64,000 nt of DNA, taken from positions 22,688 to 86,687 of the forward strand of contig DASZQJ010000160.1 in the NCBI GenBank assembly GCA_035549715.1, given 5' to 3'. A program made the translations under genes and the position numbers. The notes under the pieces were generated by a model. That model saw only the letters and a program-made list of their open reading frames with translations, searched no databases and was not told where the DNA came from. The stretch's first letter is position 1. Every line of letters starts with the position of its first letter. Below are positions 2,490-53,119 of the stretch, piece after piece. This stretch comes from Burkholderiales bacterium (GTDB lineage: Bacteria; Pseudomonadota; Gammaproteobacteria; Burkholderiales; JACQAP01).

Positions 2490-3926
<1,437 letters not shown>

Positions 3927-23769: not shown

Positions 23770-23832
23770 GGGGCCGGGAACAATCGGGGGCAGGGCCGAG
23801 TCCACTGTAGCACGCCGCCCGGCAGGGGCCGG

Positions 23833-23950
23833 GGACGGAGGACGGAGGACGAAAGACGGCGTGCTGCGTACTGAGTGCTGCGTGCTGCGTGGGCGCAGGT
23901 GCGTCGGGGCCTGGGGTCCTTACTCAGCACTCAGCACGCAGCACGCAGTA
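23833..23950. repeat. Inverted arrays of degenerate heptamer tandem repeats (long hairpin potential), locus A
   Basis: GGACGGA GGACGGA GGACGAA AGACGGC then GTGCTGC GTACTGA GTGCTGC GTGCTGC GTG (23833-23891). Partner tactcagcactcagcacgcagcacgcagta (23921-23950). 23869-23891 pairs with 23928-23950 at 21 of 23 positions. 36-nt loop. Confidence 0.85.
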
Positions 23951-24043
23951 CCCAGCATGCTTTCCCCGGCACGCCTTTCCCGGTTCCCGGTACGCCGCAC
24001 GGCGTCCTGAACCCCTGCCCTTGTGGCGGTATACTCGTCCGAC

Positions 24044-32894: not shown

Positions 32895-33473
32895 TTGGCG
32901 CTCGAACTGCCGATTTTCCCGCTCAACACCGTGCTCTACCCGGGCGGCCTGCTGCCGCTCAAGATTTTCGAGCAGCGCTACCTCGCGATGACCAAGGCCT
33001 GCCTGCGCGACAACAGCGCGTTTGGCGTCTGCCGCATCCGCGAGGGCATGGAGGTGGGCAGCCCCGCCGTGCCCGACCTCGTGGGCTGCACGGCGACCAT
33101 CGCGGAATGGGACATGCCCCACCTCGGCCTGTTCCACCTGCGCGCCCGCGGCGGCCAGGCCTTCCGCATCATCGACAGCAGCGCCCAGTCCGACGGCCTC
33201 ATCCGCGCTCGCGTCGAGCTCCTCGACGACGTGCCCGGCACCGTGGCCGCGGACGCCATGTCCCTCTGCCGGCAGGTGCTGGAGCAGATCATCCCGAAGC
33301 TGGGGGCGGACAACTTTTTCGCGCCGCTGGCGTACGACAACCCGCGTTGGGTCAGCTACCGGCTCGCCGAGGTCCTGCCGCTGGCGATGGAAGACAAGCA
33401 GGCGCTGCTGGAGGCGCGGGACGACGGGGAACGGGTGGGGCGATTGCGGGCTTTCTTGAGGAAGGTCGGCTAG
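32895..33473 (+). CDS. LON peptidase N-terminal (substrate-binding) domain protein
   Basis: Tail of ORF 32064..33473. LPIFPLNTVLYPGGLLPLKIFEQRYLAM is the LON-N signature. No in-frame ATG, so in-frame TTG at 32895 is proposed. Confidence 0.7.
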   Translation: MALELPIFPLNTVLYPGGLLPLKIFEQRYLAMTKACLRDNSAFGVCRIREGMEVGSPAVPDLVGCTATIAEWDMPHLGLFHLRARGGQAFRIIDSSAQSDGLIRARVELLDDVPGTVAADAMSLCRQVLEQIIPKLGADNFFAPLAYDNPRWVSYRLAEVLPLAMEDKQALLEARDDGERVGRLRAFLRKVG

Positions 33474-33486
33474 GCAACGCCGATAT

Positions 33487-33632
33487 CACCACAGAGGCAC
33501 AGAGGACACAGGGAAAGCAGGAAAAACTCGGCTTGACGATTGCAGGCGTTGGCCCGGAACGTAACGGCATGCCCCTCGTATCCCTACACTCCTGATCCGC
33601 CTTTCCTCTGTGTCCTCTGTGCCTCTGTGGTG
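33487..33632. repeat. Inverted repeat built from CACAGAGG-type short tandem units, locus B
   Basis: caccacagaggcacagaggacacag (33487-33511) is the perfect reverse complement of ctgtgtcctctgtgcctctgtggtg (33608-33632), 25/25. It extends by GGAAAG/CTTTCC with a 1-nt bulge. About 85-96 nt central region. Confidence 0.9.
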
Positions 33633-45681: not shown

Positions 45682-45686
45682 GCCGC

Positions 45687-45719
45687 CACCCGCCACTCGT
45701 CACCCGCCACTCGTCACTA
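45687..45719. repeat. Tandem 14-nt (2 x heptamer) repeat in the thiS-thiG spacer, locus D
   Basis: CACCCGCCACTCGT CACCCGCCACTCGT CACTA. Heptamer phase CACCCGC/CACTCGT. No inverted partner found nearby. Confidence 0.85.
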
Positions 45720-45726
45720 GACTCTT

Positions 45727-46524
45727 ATGGATTCCCTCGTCATCGCAGGCAAGACCTACGCCTCCCGGCTGCTCGTCGGCACCGGCAAGTACCGCGACTT
45801 CGCGCAAACCCGCGAGGCGATCGAGGCGAGTGGGGCGCAGATCGTCACGGTGGCGATCCGCCGCACCAACATCGGCCAGAACGCGAACGAGCCCAACCTG
45901 CTCGACGCCGTCCCGCCCAGCCGCTACACCATCCTGCCCAATACGGCCGGCTGCTACACCGCCCAGGACGCCGTGCGCACCCTGCGCCTCGCGCGCGAAC
46001 TGCTCGACGGCCATGACCTGGTGAAGCTGGAGGTGCTCGGCGACCCGAAGACGCTCTACCCCAACATCGTCGAGACCCTGGCCGCGGCCCGGACCCTGGT
46101 GAAGGAAGGCTTCAAGGTCATGGTCTACACCTCGGATGACCCGATCGTCGCGCGCGAGCTCGAGGACATCGGCTGCGTCGCGGTCATGCCGCTCGCGTCG
46201 CTGATCGGCTCGGGCATGGGCATCCTCAACCCCTGGAACCTGCAGATCATCATCGAGCAGGCGCGGGTGCCGGTGGTCGTGGACGCCGGCGTGGGCACGG
46301 CTTCGGATGCGGCGATCGCCATGGAGCTGGGTTGCGACGCCGTGCTCATGAATACCGCCATCGCCGCCGCCCGCGACCCCGTCCTGATGGCCTCGGCCAT
46401 GAACAAGGCGGTGCAGGCCGGCCGCGAAGCCTTCCTCGCCGGCCGCATGCCGAAGAAGCTGTACAGCGCCACCCCTTCCTCTCCCGAAGGCGGGACCATC
46501 GCCCCCTCCGACAAGGCGGCTTGA
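45727..46524 (+). CDS. thiG: Thiazole synthase ThiG
   Basis: LLVGTGKY..., [30 protein letters not shown]. Confidence 0.95.
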
Positions 46525-50494: not shown

Positions 50495-51088
50495 TCATGC
50501 CTGCCGCCCGAGCTGCCGCGCCAGTTCCGCCAGCGCGCGGCCGCGATGGCTGATGCGGTTCTTGTGCTCCGGGTCCAGCTCCGCCCCGGTTCTGCCCAGC
50601 GCCGGGTCGAGGAACAGCGGGTCGTAGCCGAAACCGCCCGCCCCGCGCGGCGCCCGCAGGATCTCCCCATGCCATTCGGCCTGCGCGATCATCGGCTGGG
50701 GGTCCGCGGCGTGGCGCATCAGGACCATGACGCAGTAATAGTGTGCGCGCCGATCGGCCTGCGGCGCCAGCAGTTCGAGCAGCCGGTCGTTGTTGCGCTG
50801 GTCGGACCTGGGCTCGCCCGCGAAGCGGGCCGAATGCACCCCGGGGGCGCCGCCCAGGGCCGCGACGCAGATCCCCGAGTCGTCCGCCAGCGCCGGCAGG
50901 CCGGTGTGCCGCGCCGCATGGCGCGCCTTCGCGAGCGCGTTCTCGACGAAGGTCTCGAACGGTTCCTCCGCCTCCGGCACCTGGAACCGCGACTGCGGCA
51001 CCACCTCGATGCGCAGCGGCGCCAGGATCTGCCCGATCTCGCGCAGCTTGCCGGCGTTGTTGCTTGCTATGACGAGTTTCTCGATCAT
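50495..51088 (-). CDS. rdgB: dITP/XTP pyrophosphatase (RdgB/HAM1)
   Basis: From ATG 51088 of ORF 50495..51178(-): LVIASNNAGKLREI, ADDSGICV, GFGYDPLF, KNRISHRG. Confidence 0.9.
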   Translation of the reverse strand: MIEKLVIASNNAGKLREIGQILAPLRIEVVPQSRFQVPEAEEPFETFVENALAKARHAARHTGLPALADDSGICVAALGGAPGVHSARFAGEPRSDQRNNDRLLELLAPQADRRAHYYCVMVLMRHAADPQPMIAQAEWHGEILRAPRGAGGFGYDPLFLDPALGRTGAELDPEHKNRISHRGRALAELARQLGRQA

Positions 51089-51096
51089 CTGCATCC

Positions 51097-51256
51097 AACC
51101 GCAAAGGCGCAAGGAAATGCACGAAGGATCGTCGCGCCCGGAGGCAGTGGACGTCCGCTGGCCGACGACTTGCCGCAACCACCACGGTGCAAAGCGCCGT
51201 ATTGCCCGGCCTCGTTTTCCTTTGCGTTACCTTCGCGTCTTTGCGCCTTTGCGGTT
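51097..51256. repeat. Inverted arrays of CTTTGCG(N) short tandem units between rph and rdgB, locus E
   Basis: aaccgcaaaggcgcaagg (51097-51114) versus reverse complement of ctttgcgcctttgcggtt (51239-51256): 17 of 18 identical. The right side carries further copies (cctttgcgttaccttcgcgtctttgcgcctttgcgg). 124-nt centre. Confidence 0.8.
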
Positions 51257-51261
51257 CATGT

Positions 51262-51978
51262 TCAGCCCGCCAGCGCAGCGTTCTGCGCCGCGACGAGCTG
51301 CCGGATGCCGTCCCCGGCCAGGTCGATCAGCGCGTCGAGTTCCCCGCGCGAGAACGGCTCGCCTTCGGCCGTGCCCTGCACTTCCACGATGCCGCCGCCG
51401 CCCGTCATGACGACGTTCATGTCGGTGTCGCAGGCCGAATCCTCGGCATAGTCGAGGTCCAGCACCGGGACCCCGCGGTAGATGCCCACGGACACGGCGG
51501 CGACCGCATCGCGCAGCGGCGAGGCCTGCAGCAACCCCGCCCCGAGCAGACGGGTCACCGCGTCGTGCACCGCGACGTAGGCGCCGGTGATGCTGGCGGT
51601 GCGCGTGCCGCCGTCGGCCTGGATCACGTCGCAGTCGATCTGGATCGTGCGTTCGCCGAGCTTGTCGAGCGCGGTGACGGCGCGCAGGCTGCGCCCGATG
51701 AGGCGCTGGATCTCCTGGGTGCGGCCCGATTGCTTGCCGCGCGCGGCCTCGCGGTCGCTGCGCGTGTTGGTGGCGCGCGGCAGCATGCCGTACTCGGCGG
51801 TGAGCCAGCCCTGGCCCCTGCCCTTCAGGAAGGGCGGCACCTTCTCCTCGATGCTCGCGGTGCAGATCACGCGCGTGTCGCCGAACTCGACGAGCACGGA
51901 GCCCTCGGCGTGGCGCGTGTAGCCGCGCGTGATCGTGACTTTCCTCAGCTGGCCGGGCTCACGTCCGCTCGGGCGCAT
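51262..51978 (-). CDS. rph: Ribonuclease PH
   Basis: [42 protein letters not shown]... Confidence 0.97.
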
Positions 51979-52121: not shown

Positions 52122-52988
52122 ATGATCTACAGCATGACCGGCTACGCCGTCGCCGCGGCCGAGCTGCCCTTCGGATCGCTCAACCTCGAGCTGCGCTCGG
52201 TCAACCACCGCTACCTGGACATCCAGTTCCGCATCCCCGACGAGCTGCGCGCGCTCGAGTCCGGCATGCGGGAGATGGCCACGGCGCGCATCAGCCGCGG
52301 CAAGGTGGAGGTGCGCATGGCGGTCGCCAAGGCGCCGGCCTCGCCTTCCAGCCTGCAGCTCGACGGCACCCTGCTCGTGCAGCTGCGCAAGCTCGACGAG
52401 GGCGTGCGCGCGGCCATGCCGCAGAGCGCGCCGCTGTCGGTGGCGGACGTGCTGCGCTGGCCGGGCATGCTCGGCAACGACGACCTCGAGGCCGGCAAGC
52501 TGCAGGAGGCGTGCAACGGCCTGTTCACGCGGGCGCTCGACGACCTGACCGCCATGCGCGCCCGCGAAGGCGCCAAGTTGAAGCAGATCCTGCTCGAGCG
52601 CATCGATTCCATGGAGGCGCTGGTCAGGCGCGTCGCCCCGCGCATGCCGCAGCTGGTGGCCTCGTACAAGGAAAAGCTCTCCACGCGGCTCAAGGATGCG
52701 ATGGTCAACATGGACGACGACCGGCTCAAGCAGGAGCTGGTGCTGTTCGCCTCCAAGATCGACGTCGACGAGGAGCTGTCGCGCCTCACCACCCACTTCG
52801 GCGAGATCCGCCGCATCCTCGACAAGGGCGGCGCGGTGGGCAAGCGCCTCGACTTCCTGATGCAGGAGCTCAACCGGGAGGCCAACACGCTGGGCTCGAA
52901 ATCGGTGGACGTGGAAGTCACGCAGACCTCGATGGACCTCAAGGTGCTCATCGAGCAGATGCGCGAGCAGATCCAGAATATCGAATAG
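52122..52988 (+). CDS. yicC: YicC family stress-induced protein (endoribonuclease YicC-like)
   Basis: MIYSMTGYA...LELRSVNHRYLD...C-terminus EVTQTSMDLKVLIEQMREQIQNIE. Confidence 0.9.
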   Translation: MIYSMTGYAVAAAELPFGSLNLELRSVNHRYLDIQFRIPDELRALESGMREMATARISRGKVEVRMAVAKAPASPSSLQLDGTLLVQLRKLDEGVRAAMPQSAPLSVADVLRWPGMLGNDDLEAGKLQEACNGLFTRALDDLTAMRAREGAKLKQILLERIDSMEALVRRVAPRMPQLVASYKEKLSTRLKDAMVNMDDDRLKQELVLFASKIDVDEELSRLTTHFGEIRRILDKGGAVGKRLDFLMQELNREANTLGSKSVDVEVTQTSMDLKVLIEQMREQIQNIE

Positions 52989-53110
52989 CCGTGAGGCGAC
53001 AGGCGTGAGGCGAGAGGCGTGACGAGCAATATCCCCGCAGGCGCGCCGCGCCTGGCGCCAGGCCGGGTTGCATTTCTTCGCCTCACGCCTCACGCCTCAC
53101 GCCTCACGCC
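52989..53110. repeat. Inverted arrays of GCGTGAG/CGCCTCA heptamer tandem repeats between yicC and gmk, locus C
   Basis: Left ccgtgag gcgacag gcgtgag gcgagag gcgtgac (52989-53024). Right cgcctca x4 + cgcc (53079-53110). About 26-27 of 30-31 aligned positions are complementary. 54-nt GC-rich centre. Confidence 0.85.
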
Positions 53111-53119
53111 TGGATTGCC

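Follow-up and report, generated by a model that had tools for sequence, protein, structure and literature searches.

Inverted arrays of short tandem units between rph and rdgB: a probable member of a dispersed family of hairpin-forming intergenic repeats in Betaproteobacteria

We report the analysis of a 160-nt block of DNA (51097-51256) in the spacer between rph and rdgB of an uncultured betaproteobacterium, within a 64-kb stretch of 68% GC that we refer to as the window. The block consists of two inverted arms of short tandem units around a variable core; it was inserted into the spacer, and elements with arms of the same kind, whose pairing is maintained by covariation, are dispersed over many betaproteobacterial genomes and viral contigs. 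The explanation that we favour, and which we hold to be probable though far from certain, is that the element, tolerated in an operon spacer, belongs to a family of intergenic hairpin repeats which is dispersed, probably mobile and similar to REPINs and MITEs.

Architecture and predicted fold of the spacer element

The rph gene lies on the minus strand at 51262-51978 and is followed by rdgB, the two being separated by a 167-nt spacer. Two complementary arms, built from tandem CGCAAAGG-like octamers of the pattern C-R-C-N-R-A-G-G, bracket its full length (Table 1). Direct reading of the sequence places aaccgcaaaggcgcaagg at 51097-51114; 17 of its 18 positions are complementary to ctttgcgcctttgcggtt at 51239-51256, just as the preliminary description of the locus had it. 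A repeat search also picked up the pair, as 19 nt at 95%. The four CTTTGCG-like units which it had listed on the right side are likewise present, three of them as CTTTGCG (51220, 51239 and 51247) and one as CTTCGCG (51231), and TRF gives a period of 8 with 3 copies on that side. When up to 3 mismatches are allowed, the 18-mer occurs at just these two sites in the 64 kb, and none of 100 shuffles contained two or more. Taken by itself, CTTTGCG is no commoner in the window than expected (10 occurrences against 11.9), so the signal is the local inverted tandem arrangement and not the word itself.

Table 1. Features of the rph-rdgB element and other elements of the same architecture in the window
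Feature	Position	Strand	Basis or context
rph-proximal arm, the 5' one of the transcript: AACCGCAAAGG CGCAAAGA CGCGAAGG, three octamer-like units	51230-51256	-	Pairs with 51097-51127 in MFE and centroid structures
Fourth unit, CGCAAAGG on the minus strand, on the inner side of the arm	51219-51226	-	Unpartnered in the opposite arm; predicted to pair within the core
Variable core, with an inner hairpin at about 51129-51169	51128-51218	-	Folding; no significant similarity to cores of other elements
rdgB-proximal arm, the 3' one of the transcript: CCTTCGTGCATTTCCTTGCGCCTTTGCGGTT	51097-51127	-	Sequence, repeat search, folding
TGA stop codon of rph (RNase PH), separated by 5 nt from the element downstream	51262-51264	-	Sequence, ORF
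rdgB start region, in-frame ATGs at 51094 and 51088	51086-51094	-	Sequence, homology
CGTGAGG/CCTCACG inverted heptamer arrays	52987-53111		Reach from the stop of yicC to a point 9 nt ahead of the start of gmk
Element of the CACAGAGG type, in one superfamily with that at rph-rdgB	33487-33632		Between a gene ending at 33473 and convergent mutY
Composite array, GGACGGA x4 and GCGTGCT x5 facing CAGCACG x5	23829-23990		Divergent spacer

The geometry at the two ends is close to that first proposed. One arm does abut the rph stop, at a distance of 5 nt and not 6, while the left arm, for which a gap of 9 nt to the rdgB start had been given, ends 2 nt before the ATG at 51094 and 8 nt before the ATG at 51088. 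The former yields the 199-aa RdgB that is called in public data; the latter (MIEKLV) is the start that matches the homologues, and GGA at 51094-51096 is its likely, weak Shine-Dalgarno sequence. JGI metagenome contigs carry a gene for the identical RdgB, and the source samples of this lineage are JGI 3300049571, 3300049744 and 3300056388. In L081, a strain whose RdgB is identical, the CCTTCG of the window's rdgB-side arm is replaced by CCCTCG at about position 466 (window position 51125); the variant breaks one A-U pair and a compensating change is absent. Elsewhere in the window a perfect 14-nt tandem repeat, CACCCGCCACTCGT, is present in 2.2 copies at 45683-45717, just upstream of an ORF starting at 45727 and within a 590-nt gap between gene calls.

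The predicted stem comprises about 26 pairs, of which 16 are perfect and are followed by a bulge and about 10 more (51097-51127 with 51230-51256). The long-range stem around the whole spacer that had been suggested is thus predicted with high probability, the outer 16 pairs having pairing probabilities of 0.7-1.0 in a 281-nt context, and it is longer than was supposed. It also withstands the refuting test that had been proposed for it, a comparison with shuffled controls (dinucleotide shuffles, n=200): the spacer with its flanks gives z = -2.2 (4/200 shuffles fold as well), whereas the element alone gives z = -3.8 as sense RNA (1/200), -5.6 as antisense RNA (0/200) and -4.7 as DNA (0/200). Across 13 rph-rdgB elements there is no preference for the sense strand, whose energies are better than those of the antisense strand in 5 cases, worse in 4 and equal in 4; nor is there a sense-strand G.U signature, G.U and A.C mismatches on that strand being about equal by eye.

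Insertion, family and covariation of the arms

Close relatives of the window were obtained by exact-protein look-ups of RdgB homologues, the matches listed in scans of genome and metagenome contigs being mostly distant ones. Arms of this kind are found in a long spacer in four of them: L083/84 (RdgB 88% identical, 188 nt), L165 (85%, 164 nt), L217 (85%, 204 nt) and L218 (82%, 194 nt). The element is also present in L085 (81%), whose contig begins within the spacer, and in L086 (78%). The nearest element-free lineages in the RdgB tree, at 80-84% identity, belong to the window's own clade and have spacers of 13 nt (L167, 84%), 1 nt (L171, 82%) and 58 nt (L172, 80%). Because the spacers of these relatives measure just 1-58 nt, the approximately 160 nt in the window are an insertion.

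A scan of the whole window for inverted repeats revealed three further loci with the same architecture and different units (Table 1). The first lies in the yicC-gmk spacer, where L087 (RdgB 75%) likewise has CGTGAGG-type units; this spacer is only 19 nt long in L167 and 25 nt in L171, so that the window's yicC-gmk element is also an insertion. At the second locus the longest mutY ORF runs through one arm of the CACAGAGG element and stops in its core, at 33584. The third lies between the starts of a kefB-like gene (23805) and a kdsD-like gene (24023). The CGCAAAGG and CACAGAGG subtypes each have a single copy in the 64-kb window. The stop-to-start geometry, which the preliminary description had also seen at a second locus, arises because a hairpin element was inserted into a spacer of 1-25 nt, and its logic is inapplicable where the same architecture lies between convergent or divergent genes.

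Over about 150 lineages the lengths of both the rph-rdgB and the yicC-gmk spacer are bimodal, at 30 nt or less and at roughly 80-400 nt. Long hairpins with arms of tandem 7-9-mers fill the majority of the long rph-rdgB spacers and several long yicC-gmk spacers. Similar elements occupy these two spacers in many Betaproteobacteria and in Xanthomonas. By a rough estimate from the sampled loci, about 10% of rph-rdgB and yicC-gmk spacers are occupied as against about 1% of others, a difference which could reflect site-specific retention or function and not random insertion. The rph-rdgB spacers of L021, L048 and L074 (Gallionella, Massilia-like), and the yicC-gmk spacer of L074, hold unrelated near-perfect palindromes with arms of about 30-50 bp; both spacers, then, accept several kinds of hairpin insert.

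When the elements are aligned, the units follow the pattern C-R-C-N-R-A-G-(G), each arm contains 2-4 tandem units of 7-9 nt, and the ends are conserved as (T)(T/G)(A/C)ACC(R)C... and ...G(Y)GGT(G/T)(A)(A) around a core that changes fast. The subtypes comprise CGCAAAGG, CGCAGAGG, CACAGAGG, CACGGAG, CACGAAGG, CGCCAAGG, CGCGAAGG and CGCTAAGG. Covariation was assessed over the outer 16 nt of both arms in 25 elements, in which 92.5% of the cells are paired and both sides have changed in 12 of the 16 pairs. Double changes account for 95 cells, against 37 +/- 4.8 in shuffles (0/500 reached the observed value), and controls in which the partner was slid along the arm pair at only 31-49%.

Some of this change affects every unit of both arms. 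The units of the window and L217 are CAAAGG/CGAAGG, while L083 has CAGAGG throughout one arm and CTCTG throughout the other in place of CAAAGG and CTTTG; L083 and L217 share the 5' flank CCCTT followed by AACCGC. The swap of units in L083 is a concerted change and does not represent six independent hits. The arms are kept in L083/84, L165, L217, L085, L086 and L218 while the cores cannot be aligned, and as this is what neutral DNA would be expected to show between species so far apart, the arms are the constrained part of the element. The window's core has no significant match among the cores of the other elements, so that shared cores give no sign of a recent transposition of the window copy.

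Dispersal, viral copies and local growth

The arms recur far from their orthologous sites. A Sulfuricella MAG (L001) carries a window-type arm of 27 nt upstream of rph, at a non-orthologous locus and with the unit variants in the same order. Searches of IMG/VR with exact arm 19-mers returned 17 stretches of the CGCAGAGG type and 24 of the window type, some of the latter being false hits in coding sequence. On the viral contig L195 two 99-nt copies lie 3 kb apart and align over both arms and core, with unrelated flanks. Nested copies occur in L089, whose rph-rdgB spacer has a CACGGAG-type hairpin that encloses one of CGCCAAG type in its loop (3164-3365), and in L088 (816-1031), and L011 and L158 each have a solo arm adjoining a full element. 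In L108 the rph-rdgB spacer holds a minimal 33-nt hairpin with the terminal sequence of the window element. The orthologous CGCGAAG-type elements of L072 (10716-10781) and L136 (4910-4985) have cores that are reverse complements of each other (AAGATTCTGGTTTTCAC and GTGAAAACCAGAATCTT), which implies either an inversion between the arms or an insertion in the opposite orientation.

Many of the viral copies are solo arms of about 30 nt, of the form (A/G)TTCACCGCAGAGGCGCAGAGG(A)CGCAGAG (L177, L180, L190, L191 and L192), and no inverted partner of the solo viral modules was found within 600 nt. Their place is directly behind a stop codon and ahead of the following start, with the purine strand mostly in sense, a suggestive bias whose orientations were taken from inspection together with open-frame and GC3 checks, automatic ORF calls being too noisy in high-GC DNA. 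One viral contig (L180/L190/L191) has at least five modules, and arrays of CACGGAT and CGCAGAGG adjoin each other in the same orientation on the viral contigs L187 (minus strand, about 1976-2070) and L189 (730-810). A selfish model alone predicts no bias towards the sense strand after stop codons unless insertion is strand-specific, and a strand-specific mechanism acting on single-stranded DNA would fit the solo viral arms.

Such observations allow a broader reading, which we put forward tentatively: CRCNRAGG may define an undescribed superfamily of modular repeats of Betaproteobacteria and their phages, based on a module of about 30 nt (TTCACC and three octamers) that stands alone after stops, purine strand in sense, or brackets spacers as inverted pairs. 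Its subfamilies would arise by concerted unit change, and the module would be moved by a strand-specific mechanism of the ssDNA type, or else be retained since its fold keeps genes coupled and free of Rho polarity.

The hallmarks of conventional transposition were sought at these loci as well. No target-site duplication flanks the window copy, L083, L165, L085, L086, L010, L001 or either L195 copy; no gene flanked by a pair of arms was found among the loci examined; and no transposase, RAYT or autonomous parent was seen, the window's own genome being covered by 64 kb. An autonomous element bounded by distant arms was considered and none was found, L192 carrying only phage structural genes. In 50,697 GenBank phages the module had no match, and a plasmid search gave only short chance matches in coding genes, both searches being subject to the BLAST low-complexity filter, which may have masked the arms.

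An origin in place, without mobility, is the strongest of the competing explanations, albeit an unlikely one. An ancestral hairpin would have grown by slippage of 7-9-nt units and by templated copying between its arms, and similar units elsewhere would stem from mutational or compositional bias. In keeping with this, the number of units differs between arms, L165 has an 8-nt bulge and L158 lacks a unit, all units of L083 have changed in concert, and the L108 hairpin would represent the minimal form at the same spacer. The inverted core between L072 and L136 counts in the same direction, as do the unit types at rph-rdgB, which are largely clade-specific and so also fit long vertical inheritance with concerted evolution in place. 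Growth in place would not readily account for the L001 arm, which has the same order of unit variants at an unrelated site of a distant genome, or for the exact 19-mers across many unrelated viral contigs, the whole-element paralogues with unrelated flanks and the nesting of different subtypes in one another. Local growth probably contributes, but on top of dispersal.

Known repeat systems, RNA-level readings and significance

REPINs, which RAYT transposases mobilise, are hairpin-forming doublets of REP sequences (Bertels and Rainey 2011, PMC3116915). The present element resembles them in being extragenic, in its two conserved inverted modules of about 30 nt around a less conserved spacer, and in its predicted hairpin in ssDNA or mRNA. 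Further points of likeness are singlets beside doublets, subfamilies that lie 1-2 bases apart and the lack of target-site duplication. A REP unit is an imperfect palindrome of 20-40 nt whose head reads GT(A/G)G or CGTC (PMC2817692, PMC3733652), whereas the arm AACCGCAAAGGCGCAAAGACGCGAAGG is a tandem direct array with neither self-complementarity nor a head motif. RAYT-associated REPs are further expected to number tens to hundreds per genome and to flank a cognate RAYT (Y1 transposase) gene. With MITEs such as Correia the element shares its short, non-coding, intergenic nature and terminal inverted repeats, as well as whole-element paralogues (L195); some MITEs are co-transcribed and folded. 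It differs in lacking a target-site duplication, in arms that are internally tandem-repetitive and in cores that are mostly unrelated between copies, the L195 pair, which does align across the core, being an exception; no parent insertion sequence with the element's ends was found.

The nearest published description is that of the Xanthomonas GGGAATC heptamer arrays, which are intergenic, have at least two tandem 7-nt units and in 70-75 cases per genome form two convergent arrays on opposite strands that are able to fold into stem-loops (Rehm et al. 2015, PMC4692102). The rph-rdgB element has this same arrangement, with at least two tandem intergenic units of 7-9 nt in two convergent, opposite-strand arrays, and we found GGGAATC-type arrays in the yicC-gmk spacer of the Xanthomonas loci L077 and L080. 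The Xanthomonas units are G-rich and were studied as G-quadruplex formers, whereas CGCAAAGG has no run of three or more G; conserved ends, dispersal of identical arms, covariation and phage copies are not mentioned in the sections consulted (PMC4692102). The TAACTGA heptamers of Beggiatoaceae (PMC4679880) and the cyanobacterial heptamers cited in PMC4692102 are also short tandem intergenic units with a patchy phylogeny and no known function, often located just upstream of start codons, and thus resemble the solo viral arms. They are nearly always direct arrays of one fixed heptamer, with an unrelated unit and without an inverted pair and core. No paper describing the CRCNRAGG family was found in our incomplete coverage of the literature, and searches by sequence strings retrieved only unrelated primers and aptamers.

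Several other candidates were rejected. The element is not an intrinsic terminator, the arm being followed by GGAUGCAG with no U tract, and the only internal candidate, at 51137-51119, is weak. The window end GTTGGAT fits the GTTRRRY of an integron attC site, but relatives end in GGTGAA and, by inspection, the other end is a misfit. A tandem Shine-Dalgarno array or ribosome tether was dismissed since 35 purine arms pair with the 16S anti-Shine-Dalgarno tail no better than shuffles (mean best-site z +0.38), that of the window being weaker (-4.0 vs -6.8 kcal/mol). A known RNA family was likewise set aside, as the element has no match in Rfam at the gathering score or at E up to 10.

The preliminary description had suggested that, if rph and rdgB are co-transcribed, the stem could close off the ribosome-binding region of rdgB. 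In its fuller form this explanation, to which we assign a low probability, holds that the stem acts in cis on the mRNA and masks the rdgB ribosome-binding region until ribosomes finishing rph, or cleavage, open it. As to the masking, the stem is predicted to span nt -9 to -24 upstream of the rdgB start at the high pairing probabilities given above; the likely Shine-Dalgarno GGA (-8 to -6) and the rdgB ATG lie outside the arm. In naked RNA these are predicted to pair with rph coding sequence, GGAUGC (51092-51097), which includes the first rdgB ATG, pairing with GCAUCC in rph (51304-51309) and lengthening the stem; translating rph ribosomes would be expected to disrupt this pairing. In relatives a purine-rich stretch of 7-12 nt follows the arm. 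Regulation in cis is also consistent with a folding energy that beats shuffles, with the covariation that preserves arm pairing and with the rph stop lying 5 nt from the stem base, where a terminating ribosome would reach the stem. An internal promoter, which the preliminary description had named as a refuting condition, was looked for and rejected: no sigma-70-like promoter was detected inside the spacer.

Several observations speak against a dedicated role in rdgB control. Three relatives of the same clade manage without the element, so that rdgB expression does not need it; the same architecture is found at convergent and divergent spacers and in phage contigs; the antisense strand folds as well or better; and the placement of the likely Shine-Dalgarno sequence and start codon outside the arm also counts against it. 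Selection at the RNA level on the sense strand is accordingly unsupported, the energies of the 13 elements being unbiased and the antisense z of the window stronger, and the lack of strand or G.U bias, of anti-Shine-Dalgarno complementarity and of an Rfam match means that nothing points to selection specific to the rph-rdgB RNA.

Least probable of all is a reading in which some factor of host or phage binds the tandem units, at the level of DNA (a nucleoid or regulatory protein) or RNA (an RNA-binding protein or the ribosome), with the inverted pair as a functional module such as an insulator, processing site or stabiliser; arm sequence is conserved beyond pairing while cores are saturated, solo viral arms are mostly sense-oriented between stop and start, and many lineages have occupied the rph-rdgB and yicC-gmk spacers, but at least four different unit sequences coexist in this window and different array types stand side by side, which argues against a single sequence-specific reader, and neither the anti-Shine-Dalgarno comparison nor Rfam supports a reader of RNA.

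Under the favoured reading, that of a tolerated copy of a dispersed repeat family, the element would have landed in a formerly very short rph-rdgB spacer, and the complementarity of its arms would be kept by processes at the level of DNA, namely copying of whole elements, slippage of units and gene conversion from arm to arm or copy to copy. On an rph-rdgB co-transcript the stem of about 26 bp would have its base where rph stops and rdgB starts, and this compact fold is the probable reason that the insert is tolerated. A folded spacer would expose little naked RNA to Rho, a ribosome terminating 5 nt from the stem could open its base and preserve coupling, and the near-perfect duplex is a plausible substrate of RNase III. 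Such effects on the RNA may account for the persistence of only compact hairpins inside operons.

The regulatory account of rdgB thereby loses support, and the stem, which is real, belongs to a repeat family and not to rdgB. Inverted arrays of short units are common in the operon spacers of Betaproteobacteria and Xanthomonas and occur in viral contigs, yet annotation pipelines, Rfam and the searchable literature are nearly silent on them, save for the Xanthomonas description, which is oriented towards G-quadruplexes. Scans of genomes for 'riboregulators' are likely to pick up these elements as false positives. Should they constitute a mobile class akin to REPINs but with arms of a new kind, they would provide an example from nature of two hairpin arms evolving in concert, a means of testing how operons tolerate inserts of about 160 nt, and markers for strain typing.
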